DNA of 64,000 nt from Nitrospirales bacterium (GTDB lineage: Bacteria; Nitrospirota; Nitrospiria; Nitrospirales; UBA8639), in assembly GCA_963555755.3 (NCBI GenBank), contig OY820905.2, positions 608,001 to 672,000 of the forward strand. Direction: 5' to 3'. The translations under genes were made by a program, and so were the position numbers. The notes beneath the pieces are model-generated. The model did not search any database and had not been told where the DNA came from. It saw only the letters and a program-made list of their open reading frames with translations. Shown piece by piece: positions 1 to 9,914 of this stretch. Each line of letters starts with the position of its first letter. Positions within the stretch are counted from its first letter, which is position 1.

Positions 1-1270
1 GGGTTTGAACAATAAATTCAATGTCACGAATACCACCGGGACTCAATTTGACGTTACGATCATCATCTCCTTTTCGCTTCACTTTTTGATGAATTTGGGT
101 CCTCAGCGAGCGGACAGCATCCACAATATTTTGCACGGCCTGTTCTTCTTGCCCGATCACAAATGGACGAATCTTTCGAAGGAAGGATTTTCCGATCGAA
201 AGTTCTCCAGCAATGGCTCGTGCTTTTAAAAAGGCCAGCCGCTCCCAAGCTCGCCCACGAGTCTGATAATAATTTACGGCTTCGCTGATTGTCCAGGCGA
301 GTGGACCGATGGTCCCTTCAGGTCGCAAACGTAAGTCCACCCGAAACAAAAAACCTTCTGATGTTGAGACAGACATCACCTGCGTCAGCGTTCTAGCCAA
401 ATTTTGGAAATAATCTTCGTTGGAAAGGCGCGTCTGACCTTCCCCCGCATTTGTGTGGCCTGGACTGGACTCATACACGTAGACCAGATCGACATCAGAA
501 CTATAGTTGAGTTCACCTCCCCCGAGTTTTCCCATACCAAGCACGACAAATCCTGTCTTCTGTTCTTGTCCTTTTGAATCCGTATGATGGGGGCTTCCAT
601 GTTGTCTCTGGAGATCTTCGTTCACCAGCTGATACGCCGCATGAATTACGGTTTCAGCTAATTGAGAAAGGGCATGAAAGGTGTCTTGAACCGTCGCGAC
701 ACGAAACAGGTCACGAGCGCCAAGGCGAAGCATTTCTCGACGATGAAACCGTCGAAGGATGTCCAACTTGCGTTCATACGTTTTGACGAGACTTAGAGAT
801 TCGTATAAGAGCACGTGAAGACGTTTTTTTGTGGGTCGTCTTTGGAGAATGCGTTCGTCCTCTAGCCAATAGATCACTGTCGGGGACCGGATCAAGGTTT
901 CAGCCATGGCCGGACTGCTCCCAAATAACACACAGAGCAATTCTAAGAGATGAGGTGTTTGGCCCAAAAAGCTAAAGACCTGCGTCCGGGCATTGCCGGC
1001 TTCCAGAAACCGTTCCCAATCATTTAACGCCTGATCAGGGTCAGCAGTGTGTGAAACGGCTTCCAATAATTGATGAAGAATCGGTGCGAGTAATTTGCGG
1101 CTTCGTGGGAGCCCAGCCATCAATTGCAAATTGGCATCCGCCTTCCTCCAATCATTAAATCCATAGGGGGCTAAGAGGCGAGAAACTTCGGTCCCAGGCA
1201 AATCCGGTGACAGAAGAAGAGGAGTAGGATCAAGAGGAGTTGTCGTCAATGATGAATCAGAAGATGTCAT
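1..1270 (-). CDS. glnE: GlnE-family glutamine synthetase adenylyltransferase/removase (runs off window edge; visible domain is removase-like)
   Basis: Not in ORF track; hand translation from ATG 1270 is open to base 1 and gives GMGKLGGGELNYSSDVDLVY, FRVDLRLRPEG, RGRAWER, NVKLSPGGIRDIEFIVQ. Confidence 0.85.
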   Translation of the reverse strand, partial: MTSSDSSLTTTPLDPTPLLLSPDLPGTEVSRLLAPYGFNDWRKADANLQLMAGLPRSRKLLAPILHQLLEAVSHTADPDQALNDWERFLEAGNARTQVFSFLGQTPHLLELLCVLFGSSPAMAETLIRSPTVIYWLEDERILQRRPTKKRLHVLLYESLSLVKTYERKLDILRRFHRREMLRLGARDLFRVATVQDTFHALSQLAETVIHAAYQLVNEDLQRQHGSPHHTDSKGQEQKTGFVVLGMGKLGGGELNYSSDVDLVYVYESSPGHTNAGEGQTRLSNEDYFQNLARTLTQVMSVSTSEGFLFRVDLRLRPEGTIGPLAWTISEAVNYYQTRGRAWERLAFLKARAIAGELSIGKSFLRKIRPFVIGQEEQAVQNIVDAVRSLRTQIHQKVKRKGDDDRNVKLSPGGIRDIEFIVQT

Positions 1271-1350
1271 AACAGGAATAGCGGTACACAAATTTCGATT
1301 ATAGAAGGCTGGTCGAGGCCTTACAATGCCTACAATTTTTAGTATACTCC

Positions 1351-3663
1351 ATGATCATGACCACCCTGCCCACACTCACAACCCTGCAGAAAGTCTTGCC
1401 AGGCGTTGCTCCCGACGTGATTCAGGATTTTCTTGATCGGATGGACCAAGATTATTTTTCCCATTTCCCCAAAACAACGGTGGCGAAACACATCCAGTTA
1501 GTCAATGACTTAACCCCCGATCAACCCTGCGCACTCAATGTACAACCAGGAAAAGATACATCTCAGTTTAAACTCACACTCGTGGCCTATGACTATTTTG
1601 CCGAATTCGCCATGGTGTGTGGGTTATTATCTGCCTATGGCTTGGACATTCGGGAGGCGTTCATTTTCACTTCTCACGAAAAAGGAACACCATCATTAAA
1701 CCCGGCACGCCACAACATCCGCCATCTGAAATCTCGTAATTTTTCTGTTCAACGTCCGACACAGCATCCCGGTTTATCAAGAAAAAAAGTGGTGGATGTG
1801 TTTCGTCTGCAAGTCCTCTCAGGATGCACATTCAATGCGCAAGACCAACAAGCCTTCACCCATGAATTGATCGAGATGGTTCAGATGTTGAATTCTCGCC
1901 ACGCACAAGTCGTTCGAACACGGGTCAATCGAAAATTATTGGAAACTCTTGGAAAAAGAAAAACCTCGTTGACGAATTTGGTGCATCCGGTGGAGATTCA
2001 ATTCAATAATTCGATTTCTTCCCAAGACACTGTCATGGATATTCGAGCCACCGACTCACCTGCTTTCCTGTATGCCTTTTCCAATGCTCTCACCATGAGG
2101 GGTATCTATTTAACCAAGGCCATAATAGAAGTCGATGGCACAAGAGTCCGGAATCGGTTTTTCGTCAGAAGCCGACAGGGTCAAAAAATTGTGACGGCCG
2201 ATGCACAACAAGAACTGATGGTGGCTGCGGCCCTTATCAAAGAATTCACTCACTTTTTAACCTGGGCTCCGGATCCGACCAAGGCCCTTGATCATTTCGA
2301 TCAATTTCTGGACCAGCTACTGGAAGATCACCCCACCAAGAAAAAATTTACTTGGTTGACCCGGAAAGACTCCTTAGCCAATCTCGCCCAATTATTCGGG
2401 ACCAGTGATTTTTTGTGGGAAGACCTTCTCAGACGACAACACACAAATTTGCTCCCCATTTTCGAAGAATTTCACACACAAAGTGAACATCCTTCAAAAG
2501 AACAATTGATAGAAACGTTACGAGCAAGACTTGGGAAAACAAAAAACCCTGAAACTCGAAAAGCCATTCTGAATCAATTCAAGGACGAAGAGCTGTTCCG
2601 CATCGACATGAACCATATTCTTAAGAGTACCTCTCTCCCGATATTTTCCCAGGCCCTGACCACCTTAGCTGAAGTGATCCTGGACCAAGCGTTACTAGAG
2701 GCACAGTCGGTAGTCAATCAATCCCGTAAACCTCCAACAACCAAAAATAATCAATCCCTGCCAGTGACCATCTGTGGATTGGGAAAACTCGGGGGTCGCG
2801 AATTGGGGTACGCCTCGGATATAGAGATTGTGTTTATTTATGATATGGATCCCCACACTCCTCCACACCAACGCCCGATCATTGGAGAATACTACGAACG
2901 ACTGGTACAGGAATTTTTGCATTGGATCGAAGCCAAGCAGGAAGGTATTTTTCAAATTGATACTCGGCTTCGCCCACATGGAGAAAAAGGGCTCCTCGCA
3001 AATTCAATGGAAGAAATTCAACGCTATTACCATGTGGACGGCAGGGCTGTACCCTTCGAGCGTCAAGCCTGGATAAAACTTCGACACGTGGCCGGAGACG
3101 AAAATCTAGGCCATCACGTTGAAGGCCATCGAGATGAATTTGTGTACAGTTCAGAACCCTGGGCTCTCGATACAGCCCTACACTTACGACACCGACAGAT
3201 CCGTGAGCTTGTTCCCCATGGTTCGATTCATGTGAAATATAGCCCAGGAGGGTTAATCGACATTGAATACACCACGCAATACATCCAATTAACACATGGA
3301 AATCACAAACCAACCATACGCACAACCAATACGCTAGAGGCACTCAAATCATTAGAAACCACCAAGCATTTATCAAAGAAGGAATCCAAGGCCTTACAAG
3401 AAGATTATGTTTTTATGCGAAAAGTCATTGATGGCCTTCGTATCGTCCGAGGTAATGCCAAGGATTTAGTTCTGCCAAAGTCCGGCTCAGAGGATATGAT
3501 CTACCTGGCAAGGAGACTCGGGTATCTCACCAAAGTCTGGCAGGAAGGTGCCAAGGTTTTTGAACAAGACATTCAAAAACGGATGGATCGGGTGCATAAG
3601 CTGTTCACTAAACAATTTCCTCAATCCCCCTTAAAAAGAAAAATATCCTCCAAAAGGGTATAG
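1351..3663 (+). CDS. GlnE-type nucleotidyltransferase domain fused to two N-terminal ACT-like domains
   Basis: GLGKLGGRELGYASDIE, IDTRLRPHG, VKYSPGGLIDIEY; N-terminal segments (LVAYDYFAEFAMVCGLLSAYGLDI; IRATDSPAFLYAFSNAL) resemble GlnD-type ACT domains. Confidence 0.8.
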   Translation: MIMTTLPTLTTLQKVLPGVAPDVIQDFLDRMDQDYFSHFPKTTVAKHIQLVNDLTPDQPCALNVQPGKDTSQFKLTLVAYDYFAEFAMVCGLLSAYGLDIREAFIFTSHEKGTPSLNPARHNIRHLKSRNFSVQRPTQHPGLSRKKVVDVFRLQVLSGCTFNAQDQQAFTHELIEMVQMLNSRHAQVVRTRVNRKLLETLGKRKTSLTNLVHPVEIQFNNSISSQDTVMDIRATDSPAFLYAFSNALTMRGIYLTKAIIEVDGTRVRNRFFVRSRQGQKIVTADAQQELMVAAALIKEFTHFLTWAPDPTKALDHFDQFLDQLLEDHPTKKKFTWLTRKDSLANLAQLFGTSDFLWEDLLRRQHTNLLPIFEEFHTQSEHPSKEQLIETLRARLGKTKNPETRKAILNQFKDEELFRIDMNHILKSTSLPIFSQALTTLAEVILDQALLEAQSVVNQSRKPPTTKNNQSLPVTICGLGKLGGRELGYASDIEIVFIYDMDPHTPPHQRPIIGEYYERLVQEFLHWIEAKQEGIFQIDTRLRPHGEKGLLANSMEEIQRYYHVDGRAVPFERQAWIKLRHVAGDENLGHHVEGHRDEFVYSSEPWALDTALHLRHRQIRELVPHGSIHVKYSPGGLIDIEYTTQYIQLTHGNHKPTIRTTNTLEALKSLETTKHLSKKESKALQEDYVFMRKVIDGLRIVRGNAKDLVLPKSGSEDMIYLARRLGYLTKVWQEGAKVFEQDIQKRMDRVHKLFTKQFPQSPLKRKISSKRV

Positions 3664-3691: not shown

Positions 3692-3731
3692 AAAAGGCCC
3701 GTTCCTACTACTCAGCAGGAACGAGCCTTTT
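3692..3731. terminator. Bidirectional intrinsic terminator
   Basis: aaaaggcccgttcct...aggaacgagcctttt hairpin between convergent genes. Confidence 0.75.
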
Positions 3732-3754: not shown

Positions 3755-5164
3755 CTACACATCATAGTACATGACAAATTCGTGCGGATGCGGTCGAATT
3801 CGTACTTGATCCACCTCATTATCCCGTTTGTAACCAATCCAAGCTTGCACCAAGTCTTCACTGAAGACTCCACCTTTTAACAGGAATTGATAATCGTTTT
3901 CCAAGTTACTCAAGGCCTCGTCCAAACTCGCCGGCATCGTCGGAATATTTCCTGCTTCTTCTGGAGCTAAATCATAGAGATTTTTGTCCATGGCTTCTCC
4001 AGGATCGATTTTATTTTGCACACCGTCAAGTCCGGCCATTAACATGGCGCTGAAGGCCAAATAACAATTCGCGGCGGGGTCTGGAAACCGCACCTCGATC
4101 CGTTTGGCTTTGGGGTTGGGAGAATACATGGGAATGCGAATTCCCGCCGATCGGTTTCGACTGGAATAGGCCAATAACACCGGAGCCTCAAAGCCTGGCG
4201 TTAATCGTTTATAGGAATTGGTCGTAGGATTGGTAAAGGCCGCCAAAGCTGGACTATGCTTGAGAATGCCTCCGATATAATGCAAGCACATCTTGGAGAC
4301 ACCAGCATATTCTTTCCCAGCAAACAGAGGTTTCTTATCCTTCCAAATACTTTGGTGCGTATGCATGCCCGTGCCATTGTCCTGAAATAATGGTTTCGGC
4401 ATAAACGTCGCGGTTTTGTTATGTCGCCGGGCCACATTTTTCACAATGTATTTATACAGCATCATTTTATCGGCCATACTGACCAATGTATCAAAACGAA
4501 GATCAATTTCTGCTTGTCCGGCAGTTGCCACTTCATGGTGATGTTTTTCAACATGCATGCCGGCCTTTTCCATTTCCCGAACCATTTCTGAACGAATGTC
4601 TTGCTGGGTATCCATTGGCGGAACAGGAAAATACCCTTCCTTATGTCGTGGGCGAGCGCCAAGGTTTTGACCTTCTTGACCAGAGTTCCAAATGCCTTCA
4701 TCGGAATCAATAAAATAGTACCCTGAATGACTGTTTTGATCGTAACTCGCATGATCAAAAACAAAGAACTCCGCTTCCGGTCCCCAAAAAGACACATCTC
4801 CAATTTTGGTGCCCTTTAAATATTGCTCAGCCCGCAGGGCAACACCTCGAGGGTCTCGTTCATAGCCACCACGAGAAATGGGATCTTGGACATTGCAGAT
4901 CATAGTCAGCGTCGGAATTTCCGTAAATGCATCCATTTTGGCTGTATTGGGATCCGGTACAACCAGCATGTCACTATTCTCAATCATCTTCCAACCACGG
5001 ATTGATGATCCATCAAACCCGGACCCATCCTTAAATAAATCCAAGTTGAGTTCAGACGTGGGAATGGAAAAATGCTGCCAGGTTCCAACCAAATCCACAA
5101 ACCTCAAGTCGACCATTTCGACTTTGTTCTTTTTTGCAAAATCCAAAACCTCACGGGCTGTCAT
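3755..5164 (-). CDS. glnA: Glutamine synthetase type I
   Basis: FDGSSI, HHHEVATAGQ, TFMPKP, RIEVRFPDP motifs; adenylylation-site Tyr in KNLYDL. Confidence 0.98.
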   Translation of the reverse strand: MTAREVLDFAKKNKVEMVDLRFVDLVGTWQHFSIPTSELNLDLFKDGSGFDGSSIRGWKMIENSDMLVVPDPNTAKMDAFTEIPTLTMICNVQDPISRGGYERDPRGVALRAEQYLKGTKIGDVSFWGPEAEFFVFDHASYDQNSHSGYYFIDSDEGIWNSGQEGQNLGARPRHKEGYFPVPPMDTQQDIRSEMVREMEKAGMHVEKHHHEVATAGQAEIDLRFDTLVSMADKMMLYKYIVKNVARRHNKTATFMPKPLFQDNGTGMHTHQSIWKDKKPLFAGKEYAGVSKMCLHYIGGILKHSPALAAFTNPTTNSYKRLTPGFEAPVLLAYSSRNRSAGIRIPMYSPNPKAKRIEVRFPDPAANCYLAFSAMLMAGLDGVQNKIDPGEAMDKNLYDLAPEEAGNIPTMPASLDEALSNLENDYQFLLKGGVFSEDLVQAWIGYKRDNEVDQVRIRPHPHEFVMYYDV

Positions 5165-5222
5165 TCTCTACCTCCTTCACAAAGATAAATTGAAGATCTT
5201 CGATACACTCCAGATCTATTGA

Positions 5223-5379
5223 GGGCTCGCGCAAAAATAACTTCCCATATTTGGGCGTCGACCCATCCCGCCTGTCGGCGTGGCTCGTCCTTTCAATCTG
5301 AGGAGCATGCGCAGTCCTCAAGCCCTGCCAGACAGGTGTCTCAGCACCCAAACATGAAAAATTATTCTTGCGCGAGCCC
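5223..5379. mobile_element. MITE family B, copy 1
   Basis: TIR gggctcgcgcaa(a/g)aataa; similar copies at 20969 and 63337. Confidence 0.8.
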
Positions 5380-5428
5380 TTAGGTTTCCTGCAATTGCAC
5401 CATATCGCAACACGGAGACAGCCGGTGA

Positions 5429-6772
5429 TTATGAATATGCGCTCTCATTATGCTGACTGAGATCCAATCCAACCTGTTCATCCTCGGCCGAAACCCGAAG
5501 TCCAATGGTTATATCGACAACTTTCAGAATGATAAACGTCCCGACCACCACAAAAATTATGGTGGCTACAGCCCCAACCAATTGGATGATAAACTGTCCA
5601 GGGTTGCCGAAGAATAAACCTTGGGCCCCAATCGAAGCAAATAATCCGACGGCGAGAATGCCCATGAATCCACCAACCCCGTGTATACCCACGACATCAA
5701 GCGAGTCATCGTACCCAAGTTTGACTTTCCGCACCACAGCCAAATAGCACACACTGCCCGCGACGAGCCCAATAAACAAGGCGGATAGAGGGCCCACAAA
5801 CCCAGCACACGGGGTAATAGTGGCTAATCCAGCAATGATTCCACTCGCAACACCAAGCGTGGTGGGTTTTCCTCTATGAAACCATTCTGCGACCATCCAA
5901 CTGAAAGCACCAGCGCAAGCGGCAAGATGTGTCGCGATAAAAGCGGCGGCGGCGATCCCATCTGCCGCCAACGCGCTGCCCGCGTTGAAGCCAAACCAAC
6001 CGAACCACAATAATCCGGCTCCTAAAACAGTCATCGGCAGATTACCGGGGGGCATCGGTTCCACCCCATACCCCTTCCTCTTACCAAGAACAATGGCACA
6101 AACCAGCGCGGCAAATCCGCAACTCATATGGACGACAGCGCCTCCAGCAAAATCCAAGACCCCATTTCCCTTCCACGCATCATTCATCCAACCCATATCG
6201 CTCATCCAGCCACCACCCCAGATCCAATGAGCCAACGGGGAATAGATAAAGGTCGACCACAGAACGGCGAAAGCCAACAAAGCTGTAAATTTCATCCGCT
6301 CAGCAAAGCTACCGGTAATCAAGGCCACTGTAATCGCAGCAAACATTAATTGAAAAAACATGAACGCCTGGTGTGGCACCGTCGAGGCATAGTCTGGACT
6401 TGGAGTCAGGCCTACACCATTCAGACCCACCCAGTCTAATCCCCCGATCACCGACCCCACGTCCGGGGCAAAGGCTAGCGAGTAGCCCCAAAGGACCCAC
6501 ACAATGCTAATGACGCAAAGAATAATAGCGGAATGCATGAGCGTGCCCAGGACATTCTTAGTCCGAACAAGCCCGCCGTAGAAAAGGGCCAGACCAGGGA
6601 GTGTCATGCACATCACCAGCGCCGAAGACATCAGAATCCATGCCGTATCTCCGGAATCAATGGTTGGTCCTCCACCCGAGGTCCCCTCCTGGGCCCATCC
6701 GGTTGATACACAAAACCCTTGCAAAACTGCCAGTGTCAGCATCAAAATTCTGTACTGTGTGGATCGCATCAC
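5429..6772 (-). CDS. amtB: Ammonium transporter
   Basis: DFAGGAVVH, WFGWFGFNAGS, DDSLDVVGIHG; signal peptide. Confidence 0.97.
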   Translation of the reverse strand: MMRSTQYRILMLTLAVLQGFCVSTGWAQEGTSGGGPTIDSGDTAWILMSSALVMCMTLPGLALFYGGLVRTKNVLGTLMHSAIILCVISIVWVLWGYSLAFAPDVGSVIGGLDWVGLNGVGLTPSPDYASTVPHQAFMFFQLMFAAITVALITGSFAERMKFTALLAFAVLWSTFIYSPLAHWIWGGGWMSDMGWMNDAWKGNGVLDFAGGAVVHMSCGFAALVCAIVLGKRKGYGVEPMPPGNLPMTVLGAGLLWFGWFGFNAGSALAADGIAAAAFIATHLAACAGAFSWMVAEWFHRGKPTTLGVASGIIAGLATITPCAGFVGPLSALFIGLVAGSVCYLAVVRKVKLGYDDSLDVVGIHGVGGFMGILAVGLFASIGAQGLFFGNPGQFIIQLVGAVATIIFVVVGTFIILKVVDITIGLRVSAEDEQVGLDLSQHNESAYS

Positions 6773-6847: not shown

Positions 6848-7219
<372 letters not shown>

Positions 7220-7296: not shown

Positions 7297-8634
7297 TTAT
7301 GAATACGCCCGTTCGTTGTGTTGGCTGAGATCGAGTCCAAGGACCTCTTCATCTTTGGTCACGCGAAGGCCGATGGTCATATCAAGGACCTTTAAAATAA
7401 TAAACGTACCAACAAAAGAAAATACCCAGGTTGCTCCAACGCCAATGGCTTGAATCGCGACCTGACCAGGATTCCCGAAAAACAACCCGGTTGCCCCACC
7501 GACACTGGCAAAGAGACCGGTCGCAATCGCGCCCCAAGAACCACCAATCCCATGAATCGCAAGAACATCCAGGGCATCATCAAACCCAAGTTTACTTTTC
7601 CACAGAACCGCTGCATAACAAAACGCCCCGGCGCCTACACCAATCACAATGGCAGATATAGGCCCAACAAAACCCGCGGCAGGAGTGATGGCCACCAACC
7701 CTGTGACGGCTCCACTGGCTGCTCCAAGAGCGGTGGGTTTGCCCCGATACGCCCATTCCACAACGAGCCAAGACAACGCCCCTGCTGCCGTCGCCACATG
7801 AGTGGCCACAAACGCACCCGCGGCGATTCCATCTGCCGCTAACGCGCTGCCTGCATTGAAGCCAAACCATCCAACCCACAGGAGCGACGCGCCAATCAAC
7901 GTGAAGGGAAGATTATGGGGGGCCATCTTCTCCGTACCATATCCATGACGTGTTCCGAGTACCAGTGCCGCCGCTAAGGCCGCCACGCCAGAACTAATAT
8001 GGACTACCGTTCCCCCAGCGAAATCCAAGGTTCCTTTTCCCTTCCAAGCATCCCTCATCCAACCCATATCGCTCATCCATCCCCCGCCCCATACCCAATG
8101 CGCTAAGGGGGAATAGATAAAGGTTGCCCAGAGTATCGCAAACAAGATAAACGCACCAAAATTCATTCGCTCAGCAATCGCACCGCTAATCAGAGCGACG
8201 GTGATCCCAGCAAACATGAGCTGAAACACCATAAAAGCCAAGTGGGGAATAGCTGTGCCGGAGAACGCCTCAGCCCCTACGCCACGGAGGCCTAAGAATT
8301 CAAAACTTCCGATTATTCCACTGATATCGGAGCCAAACGCAATCGTATATCCCCAAAGCACCCAGACAATACTCACCACACACACAGCGATAAAGCTATG
8401 CATCATGGTGCTGAGTACATTCTTATTCCGGACCATTCCCCCGTAAAATAACGCCAAACCGGGAATAGTCATGAGCAGCACTAACGCCGAGGCCGTAAGA
8501 ACCCAACTGGTATCACCCGCACTAATCGCCGCGGCTTCCCCAGACTCCTCACCAAACACTGGGGCAGCAAATGATAAAAGTAAAAACACTGAAATTAAAA
8601 ACAAGAGATACTTATATGTACTTTTTTTATTCAT
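7297..8634 (-). CDS. amtB: Ammonium transporter (second paralog)
   Basis: DFAGGTVVH, WVGWFGFNAGS, DDALDVLAIHG. Confidence 0.97.
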   Translation of the reverse strand: MNKKSTYKYLLFLISVFLLLSFAAPVFGEESGEAAAISAGDTSWVLTASALVLLMTIPGLALFYGGMVRNKNVLSTMMHSFIAVCVVSIVWVLWGYTIAFGSDISGIIGSFEFLGLRGVGAEAFSGTAIPHLAFMVFQLMFAGITVALISGAIAERMNFGAFILFAILWATFIYSPLAHWVWGGGWMSDMGWMRDAWKGKGTLDFAGGTVVHISSGVAALAAALVLGTRHGYGTEKMAPHNLPFTLIGASLLWVGWFGFNAGSALAADGIAAGAFVATHVATAAGALSWLVVEWAYRGKPTALGAASGAVTGLVAITPAAGFVGPISAIVIGVGAGAFCYAAVLWKSKLGFDDALDVLAIHGIGGSWGAIATGLFASVGGATGLFFGNPGQVAIQAIGVGATWVFSFVGTFIILKVLDMTIGLRVTKDEEVLGLDLSQHNERAYS

Positions 8635-8672: not shown

Positions 8673-9914
8673 CTAAAAGAGGAAGATCCCTTCAACCGCT
8701 AAGGTTGATTGGTTGTCACTGAACCCGACACCGTCTTGAAAGGTCTTTTGGTCAGACTTATCGTACCGAAATTCTGCTCGAGTAATTAAATTGGGAACTG
8801 GTTTAAATTGCAATGTGTAGGTCATCTCCCAAAGAGTTTGGCCTCCCGGGATAGCTGCATCGCTACCTGCATCGATAGCTGCATCGATAGCTGCACCAGA
8901 ACAAACAAGGGCATTGCCTAAAGGTGGCCCCCCGGCGCAACTTTGGGTGCCAGCTGCATCATCAAAAATTTCTGCACGTACTCGGGCACCCCATTGATCT
9001 GTAAAGTCATAGATAAAGTAACCAGCGACTCCACCCCAACGAGCCATAGTTGTTGCTGCGCCACCAGGATTGGCCTGGTTACCATAGTAAGCTTCAATAA
9101 CAACTTCTGCTTTATCCGTGACTTGGACATCTAAAATTCCGCCAAATAAGAGACGTTCAGAATTCGGTATATTTCGTGGACCTTCAGGTCCCCAGAAACC
9201 AAATAAAGAAACTCCCACATTATCCATAGGTGAAATGGAAAGAAGGGCTTCGATGGATTTGCTACTATTAAGATCAACCTGGGTACCTGTAAAAGAGTTA
9301 ATAACGCTAGCTGCAAAGGATACATAATCATTAAAGTCGTACGATCCTCGAAGACCAGTTACCGTGAAGGGTTCTCCCATTCCAAACATAAATGACCGGG
9401 AAAAATTTGGATTCACATAACTTTCAATCACCTCATATCCAACAAGGGTGTTCATTCGTCCTGCTTGAATAGTCAAACCATTTCCAATTGGGGCAATAAA
9501 TTGTACATATGCTTCCTGAAAATCAAAATCATCGGCTCCGGATCCCCCTGAAAATTTTGCATCCTCACCGAAATTTAACTTAAGCCGAAACCCCGCGCGA
9601 TCCTCCAGGCTTCCATCTCCATTTGCCCCCTTTTCGAAAACCAGTTGAGCATTATTGGGTCTGAAAGAATTTGAGTCTCCATCAAAACTCCTCATGTTAT
9701 TGATACCCGTACTAGGATTATTGAAGTTCTGAGTATAAGATGTTGACACAAACCCATAAAGGGAAAGATCTAATTTTTTTGAAAGGGAATGTTCTTCTTC
9801 CCGAGCCATGGATTCCGAAACAAAGACAGGCAGGATCAACAGCACCATGGCCATGATCGTCACCACGAAAGGCGTAAATATTTTTTGTACACAAGGAAAA
9901 ATCTTCAAGGTCAT
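8673..9914 (-). CDS. Outer-membrane beta-barrel porin
   Basis: Signal peptide, amphipathic strands, RAEFRYD near the end, C-terminal Phe; first gene of the amt run. Confidence 0.8.
   Translation of the reverse strand: MTLKIFPCVQKIFTPFVVTIMAMVLLILPVFVSESMAREEEHSLSKKLDLSLYGFVSTSYTQNFNNPSTGINNMRSFDGDSNSFRPNNAQLVFEKGANGDGSLEDRAGFRLKLNFGEDAKFSGGSGADDFDFQEAYVQFIAPIGNGLTIQAGRMNTLVGYEVIESYVNPNFSRSFMFGMGEPFTVTGLRGSYDFNDYVSFAASVINSFTGTQVDLNSSKSIEALLSISPMDNVGVSLFGFWGPEGPRNIPNSERLLFGGILDVQVTDKAEVVIEAYYGNQANPGGAATTMARWGGVAGYFIYDFTDQWGARVRAEIFDDAAGTQSCAGGPPLGNALVCSGAAIDAAIDAGSDAAIPGGQTLWEMTYTLQFKPVPNLITRAEFRYDKSDQKTFQDGVGFSDNQSTLAVEGIFLF

Follow-up and report, generated by a model that had tools for sequence, protein, structure and literature searches.

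An apparently undescribed two-gene GlnE with a GlnD-type ACT pair beside glnA in Nitrospirales

Escherichia coli GlnE is a single chain with an N-terminal removase and a C-terminal transferase, and tandem ACT domains are the glutamine sensor of GlnD. The stretch analysed here (the window; 64,000 nucleotides of contig OY820905.2 from a Nitrospirales bacterium) carries a different arrangement of these modules next to glnA. Two divergent genes encode a stand-alone adenylyl-removing (AR) type GlnE of 534 amino acids (aa), referred to as the left protein, and a 768-aa right protein, in which an ACT pair precedes a single GlnE-type nucleotidyltransferase (NT) domain. This two-gene GlnE with an ACT pair is real, conserved and apparently undescribed. 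Literature searches with most subscription journals outside their coverage returned no description of a GlnE with ACT domains or of glnE as two separate genes. The reading given slightly better than even chances here is that the locus encodes a stand-alone adenylyltransferase (AT) gated by its ACT pair, most likely through glutamine, and a separate removase, both acting on Tyr397 of GlnA.

The N-terminal domain of E. coli GlnE removes AMP from glutamine synthetase (GS) and the C-terminal domain adds it (PMC12409994, PMC7382387), while PII-UMP stimulates AMP removal and GlnD senses glutamine (PMC6490700). The glutamine response of GlnD requires its ACT domains (PMC11190351), as a second source also states (PMC12702975). 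C-terminal AT domains on their own can adenylylate GS in vivo (PMC9249168). In PMC6131200 a pair of neighbouring loci of N. moscoviensis is listed, without comment, as GlnEB.

Compared with bifunctional GlnE (E. coli NP_417525.1; structures 1V4A and 3K7D), the locus has the same fold of NT and helical domains (VIA Z 38.6 and 36.7), a single AR-type NT domain and a single non-AR one in each genome, a GlnA with Tyr397 kept, and an amt-PII-glnA context. It differs in consisting of two genes, each far below the NCBIfam full-length cut-offs and with one PF03710 domain apiece, and in a non-AR half that has a GlnD-type ACT pair, D-x-E for D-x-D, and a clade of its own. GlnD ends in a linker-ACT-ACT region that has its homologue in residues ~20-290 of the right protein. 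Unlike GlnD, however, the right protein lacks an HD domain, carries the ACT pair N-terminal to a GlnE-type NT domain and has an altered ligand loop, and the true glnD lies elsewhere in the genome. The engineered unidirectional adenylyltransferases (uAT; PMC9249168) are, as is proposed for the right protein, AT domains without AR that act as stand-alone GS switch-off enzymes. They are sensorless laboratory truncations, whereas the right protein comes from a gene that is natural and conserved, brings an ACT pair of its own and is accompanied by a putative removase on a separate gene. The same module, 28-36% identical and in one clade, is found in uncharacterised fused GlnE proteins (AR-ACT-ACT-NT in Chloroflexota, Planctomycetota, Acidobacteriota and Calditrichota; ACT-ACT-NT-AR in Deltaproteobacteria). 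These differ in being single chains of 1150-1350 aa whose AR halves lie in a clade apart from the left protein, and their database name is only GlnE.

Two genes with one GlnE domain each

The head-to-head arrangement of two GlnE-type genes 80 bp apart, noticed in the first-pass annotation, was borne out (ATG 1270 on the minus strand to ATG 1351 on the plus strand). The left-gene motifs quoted there, ELNYSSDVD and NVKLSPGGIRDIEF (14-55), are also present, and GlnA keeps its target tyrosine (KNLYDL) as claimed. The suggestion that the left gene might be full length beyond the window did not hold. Its stop codon lies just past the edge (G000:C1:607666), which rules out a full-length GlnE cut by the window, and a methyl-accepting chemotaxis protein (MCP) signalling gene is next. 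The complete gene contains one Pfam GlnE NT domain only, with one PF08335 helical domain beside it.

The source genome is 99.4% complete in 2 contigs and contains one full glnD and one PII gene; tblastn found two GlnE-type loci in it and no third. An assembly artefact or one-off frameshift was rejected: the split pair is kept in 20/20 fetched order-level loci, and contigs from two sequencing runs, which may be those of the source sample, span the stretch without indels. One metatranscriptome has small contigs over both genes and another has none. Contigs from RNA libraries do not demonstrate transcription and were not used as evidence.

The left protein is very probably the removase, because it combines AR signature residues, placement in the AR clade and a phmmer preference for the AR structure. 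In an alignment of 181 NT modules (82 of them ACT-linked, 18 canonical N-halves and 18 C-halves), the AR signature (E. coli N169, R324, H/N382, Q385, Q391) is found in 94-100% of the canonical N-halves and 0-16% of the C-halves. All five residues are present in the left protein, and they occur in 92-100% of 14 order-level left proteins. The catalytic carboxylates D259/D261/D312 are kept. The protein scores 208 bits against 1V4A (AR) vs 164 against 3K7D (AT), and in the trees it groups with N-halves. An initial tree, made by a quick method, left out 7 rows without a pattern match to the motif and 1 short row; 3 open reading frames were skipped in a later one.

The right protein is probably the transferase. 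The idea that the two GS-modifying activities may be separate proteins is supported, firmly for the domain layout and well for the left half; for the right half the transferase role is likeliest by exclusion and by a few C-half residues, and the trees leave the point unsettled. The right protein scores 116 bits against 3K7D vs 88 against 1V4A. The AR signature is found in 0% of the 82 ACT-linked modules, which have G697- and R828-like residues in common with C-halves. D490, E492, D537, R539, R541, K629 and E639 are conserved in the right protein, the carboxylates D490/E492/D537 being invariant in all 82. The ACT-linked modules form one clade outside the AR clade (support 100), and the right protein falls outside the AR clade with support 96-98. 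The best constrained GlnD-rooted tree joins the right module with C-halves, and tblastn found no further AT candidate in the genome.

Several observations weigh against this assignment. All 82 ACT-linked modules carry Glu in place of the second catalytic Asp. Of 11 diagnostic columns, 4 are N-like, 3 C-like and 4 neither in the order-level right modules, and fold searches with the right protein rank 1V4A slightly over 3K7D. The GlnD-rooted tree rejects neither a right half placed with AR (p 0.46) nor one outside both groups (p 0.44), and in a 36-row tree the split between AR and the rest has a support of only 63.

The N-terminal ~290 aa of the right protein are, by homology and by model, a GlnD-type ACT pair. 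Positions 618-841 of TIGR01693 (GlnD) match residues 22-289 with E 1e-17, and hhalign places a profile built from 22 diverse relatives on residues 663-891 of this genome's GlnD with a probability of 98.2. When aligned directly with 10 GlnD proteins, the right protein runs collinear through the pre-ACT helices and both ACT domains, with a different ligand loop. The AlphaFold2 model has a mean predicted local distance difference test score (pLDDT) of 84.7. Its ACT region matched in VIA the ACT-bearing aspartate kinase (Z 10.8, root-mean-square deviation 3.5, 152 residues aligned) and, at Z < 8, which alone is common, a regulatory domain of threonine dehydratase (Z 7.8) and, among plant ACT-like domains, that of maize R (Z 6.7, root-mean-square deviation 1.9, 79/79 aligned). 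Pfam ACT models stay below cut-off on the right protein (PF24931, E 0.003); among 13 relatives scanned they reach E < 0.05 in 10 and pass the cut-off in 2 (P0125, P0127). Foldseek with the whole model gave no significant ACT match (best 9d2r, E 0.3), and a single-sequence fold of the ACT region alone had a pLDDT of 47. The initial description of the right gene as one NT domain (ELGYASDIE) after two ACT-like segments is thus confirmed by the Pfam NT match and the GlnD-type homology, and the N-terminus both scores and folds as ACT. A glnD fragment was rejected as an explanation: the protein has no HD domain, its NT domain is of GlnE type, it scores 64 bits with TIGR01693 at a cut-off of 519, and a complete glnD is present at another locus.

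Distribution, architectures and origin

Close homologues carry mainly Nitrospirales or Nitrospirota names. A match to the right protein was found in 48/61 order-level genomes, and all 48 have both halves (the second half at E 1e-20 in 47, and seen at its fetched locus in the last). The pair is divergent in 37/37 scorable loci, out of 38 order-level loci, which share kinship. Two genomes, G112 (L204) and G178 (L205), lack both halves; in these glnA runs directly into clpB, while both genomes retain glnD and a GlnA with the Tyr motif. Among 20 loci from the phylum's other orders, none has the ACT pair: 18 are two-NT chains, 1 is cut by a contig end and 1 is a stand-alone AR. In G124, from another order of the same class, the halves are unlinked, with a 538-aa AR-type gene beside glnA (L074) and the ACT-NT gene on another contig (L191). 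Four loci (L056, L057, L058, L060) encode GlnE chains of canonical type that are longer at the N-terminus by 150-450 residues, and these extensions show no match to the ACT pair described here.

The 150 best 50%-representatives comprise 68 ACT-NT-AR, 40 AR-ACT-NT and 38 ACT-NT-only proteins; 21 of the last group are 700-790 aa long and the others are partial or longer. The permuted fusions, with AR last, are ~1250 aa long and bear Deltaproteobacteria names (P0139, P0274, P0378 and 65 more representatives). They would be mislabelled by the usual rule that the N-terminal half is AR. The 80 best genome loci listed for the diverse profile, mainly from Chloroflexota and Planctomycetota, are 75 AR-first fusions and 5 loci cut by contig ends. 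Many fused loci have glnA within 5 kb, and 44/51 full-length GlnA proteins there fit the strict Tyr-motif pattern. Among 80 metagenome loci from a distant subclade, complete stand-alone ACT-NT genes with no AR gene in the available flanks occur in 23. Whether alone, fused AR-first or fused AR-last, the ACT-ACT-NT module forms one clade throughout. Judged by these sequences, the locus belongs to a broad ACT-NT subfamily in which several architectures occur, and is no local fission of an E. coli-type chain.

Simple fission of an E. coli-type chain was rejected, as the ACT pair is present in 0/20 other-order loci and the right NT module belongs to another clade. Simple fission of an AR-ACT-ACT-NT chain is disfavoured. 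The left protein groups with the canonical N-halves of its phylum, apart from the AR halves of ACT-bearing fusions (support 96; 100/98 in a later tree). An approximately unbiased (AU) test against this fission gave p 0.006 without long branches, in a run where E. coli AR, L062 and three ACT-NT rows were dropped, others were added, and the group had been chosen after viewing an earlier tree. With long branches kept the test gave p 0.12 and did not support a mosaic origin. The likely course is that the native AR half was kept and the native AT half was replaced by an ACT-ACT-NT gene from the wider subfamily.

This distribution bears on the first rival explanation, in which the two proteins reassemble as a heterodimer resembling the fused AR-ACT-ACT-AT enzymes, with signals passing between the halves, and the split concerns the genes alone. 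In its favour, 108/150 of the best representatives carry these modules fused, in one order or the other, as do 75 of the best 80 genome loci; the halves here share one promoter region and are lost together; and the halves of E. coli GlnE are joined by a regulatory domain (PMC12409994). Fusion in either order speaks against a fixed interface, however, and so do the unlinked halves of G124, the 23 stand-alone genes without a flanking AR gene, and the likely different ancestry of the two halves. A heterodimer is therefore considered unlikely, and separate enzymes remain the preferred reading.

Proposed regulation, GlnD and a candidate second eraser

With separate enzymes, the 534-aa protein would take AMP off GS and the 768-aa protein would add AMP to GlnA Tyr397, switched by a metabolite bound to its ACT pair. 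High glutamine would act through the ACT pair to make the transferase active and shut GS, with no need for the GlnD-PII relay. The removase, as a separate protein, could be constitutive or under PII/2-oxoglutarate control, and one promoter region would drive both genes. Textbooks present GS control as the GlnD-PII-GlnE cascade; if true, the scheme proposed here would lead from glutamine to GS adenylylation in a single step, and would account for GS regulation in those nitrifiers and Chloroflexota where GlnD was not found. With the activities on separate natural proteins, each could be assayed alone, and the rules that tell a writer from an eraser would become open to direct test. Work with truncated AT domains for ammonia-excreting diazotrophs (PMC9249168, PMC7382387) could also draw on a natural transferase that is one-way and gated by a sensor.

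Gating of the right protein by an amino acid is rated as fairly likely, and glutamine specifically as an even chance. The frequent occurrence of the module without GlnD fits direct sensing but is no proof of it. Full GlnD was found in 49/61 order genomes; in one genus (g3) it is present in 4/14 genomes and the split pair in 14/14. It was not found in G027, G036, G044, G052, G100, G104, G144, G181, G183 and G185. A search with the GlnD protein of the present genome against 5 GlnD-less genomes gave no match in 3 and only ACT2 of the ACT-NT gene in 2; in G104, a single-contig assembly, there was no match at E 0.001. Among 50 draft genomes with the fused form (covering 50 of the 80 loci), full GlnD was found in 5 and not found in 45. 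The PII-UMP route of E. coli cannot run in GlnD-less genomes. PII with Tyr51 kept is nevertheless present in 5/5 GlnD-less genomes checked.

Other facts count against direct glutamine sensing as a substitute for the cascade. This genome and 21/21 family relatives keep GlnD, which makes the ACT pair no simple GlnD replacement, and PII Tyr51 is kept here as well. The GlnD-less genomes are kin, and the 50 drafts come without stated completeness. Where the loop of GlnD has D-R-x-G-L-L, ACT2 has D-S-P-A-F-L, and ACT1 is altered there as well; the ligand may differ from that of GlnD because the loop is changed in both domains. In an algal ACT homologue with the conserved Asp mutated, glutamine sensitivity stays (PMC11190351).

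The second rival keeps the roles of the two proteins but lets the ACT pair bind another amino acid or 2-oxoglutarate, or serve PII or GS as a module for docking or oligomerisation. The altered loops and the retention of GlnD and PII Tyr51 in this genome, like that of PII in the GlnD-less ones, are in its favour. Against it, the pair is collinear with GlnD even in the linker before ACT1, and it sits on a GS-modifying enzyme, where the known signal is glutamine (PMC6490700). This rival is judged improbable, and ACT gating, with glutamine as the foremost candidate, is retained.

Indirect support for a writer role of the ACT-NT protein comes from the phosphodiesterase found in the slot that the removase occupies here. 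In 10 of the 80 metagenome loci (L210, L211, L213, L215, L217, L218, L226, L233, L234, L245) the ACT-NT gene is head-to-head with a gene for a ~400-aa PF01663 phosphodiesterase. These enzymes include two near-identical pairs and are otherwise 40-57% identical. No relative was found in the present genome, and no sequence match in the PDB. Among 401 genomes of Chloroflexota, the phylum of G186, the phosphodiesterase is present in 7. In two of these, both drafts, it faces the ACT-NT gene (G510:C61:5792-9164 and G534:C44:14320-17764), which is the only GlnE domain found there; no AR-type domain was found, and the GlnA of G534 carries the Tyr motif. No GlnE domain was found in the other 5, so this role cannot be the family's only one. 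Snake venom phosphodiesterase frees AMP from GS in vitro (PMC12409994), which makes a hydrolytic eraser plausible, and the bacterial enzyme is a candidate non-homologous GS de-AMPylase.

A broader generalisation is more doubtful. The ACT-ACT-NT module might be a self-contained, glutamine-sensing writer of AMP on GS that bypasses the GlnD-PII-GlnE bicycle, and that is paired with interchangeable erasers: a native removase on its own gene in Nitrospirales, a fused one, placed first or last in the chain, in other phyla, and in some Chloroflexota a phosphodiesterase without homology to it, as a new hydrolytic de-AMPylase.

It is very unlikely that the right protein is no plain GS adenylyltransferase at all (a bidirectional enzyme, a regulatory pseudo-enzyme, or one with another target such as PII), for although it belongs to a long-branch clade of its own that is not resolved as the sister of AT, has the invariant Asp-to-Glu change and is represented by many stand-alone copies away from glnA, its active-site residues are invariant in the 82 modules, it is the sole partner of the AR-type domain in fused forms, many of which have glnA nearby with the Tyr motif, and the genome has no other AT candidate.

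Promoter region and neighbouring genes

The features of the locus are collected in Table 1. The shared intergenic region is predicted to be a two-way promoter with short or leaderless transcripts. Two sigma-70-like promoters were found in it vs 0.5 expected. Across 37 loci, which are kin, a -10-like box precedes the right start by 2-14 nt in 33 (2.7 expected from shuffles) and the left start by 2-16 nt in 22 (1.9 expected), and in order-level loci the two boxes are frequently 37-41 nt apart. The start of the right gene is most likely ATG 1357, a small correction to ATG 1351, because the -10 box extends to 1348 and relatives usually have 6-10 nt between box and start.

Table 1. Features of the two-gene GlnE locus and its surroundings (positions in the window)
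Feature	Position	Strand	Remarks
Stand-alone AR-type GlnE gene (left)	1..1270, runs 334 bases past window edge	-	534 aa from ATG 1270; possible TTG start 1291 would give 541 aa
Pfam GlnE NT domain, single, left gene	176..940	-	residues 111-365; ELNYSSDVD at 488-514 (N255, D259, D261)
Compact two-way sigma-70-like promoter (predicted)	1298..1348	both	TTGTAA-17-TATAAT on minus (1326 to 1298); CTTACA-17-TATACT on plus (1320-1348)
ACT-ACT-NT gene (right)	1351..3663	+	770 aa from ATG 1351; 768 aa from likely start ATG 1357; likely adenylyltransferase
Helical segment homologous to linker before GlnD ACT1	1408..1515	+	residues 20-55
ACT1	1528..1893	+	residues 60-181; low-confidence basic loop ~110-140; conserved Y35/H47 upstream, D81, G91, D149
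ACT2	1993..2250	+	residues 215-300; conserved D235, F239, L240
Pfam GlnE NT domain, single, right gene	2377..3123	+	residues 343-591; ELGYASDIE at 2800-2826 (G486, D490, E492), D537
Helical substrate-binding domain PF08335	3214..3615	+	residues 622-755
18-pair hairpin flanked by A and T runs	3692..3731		between convergent ACT-NT gene and glnA; likely terminator
glnA, type I glutamine synthetase	3755..5164	-	presumed substrate; Tyr397 at 3974-3976; TIGR00653 over cut-off
Ammonium transporter	5429..6772	-	context
PII gene	6848..7186	-	the genome's only one; T-loop Tyr51 kept
Second ammonium transporter	7297..8634	-	context

The amt-PII-amt-glnA run is headed by a gene for a BBP2 (PF07642) outer-membrane porin (8673-9914, minus strand). 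Just upstream of glnA, at 5221-5381, lies a ~160-bp element with terminal inverted repeats that resembles a miniature inverted-repeat transposable element (MITE), and blastn found 168 matches to it of at least 140 bases in the genome, ~88% identical.

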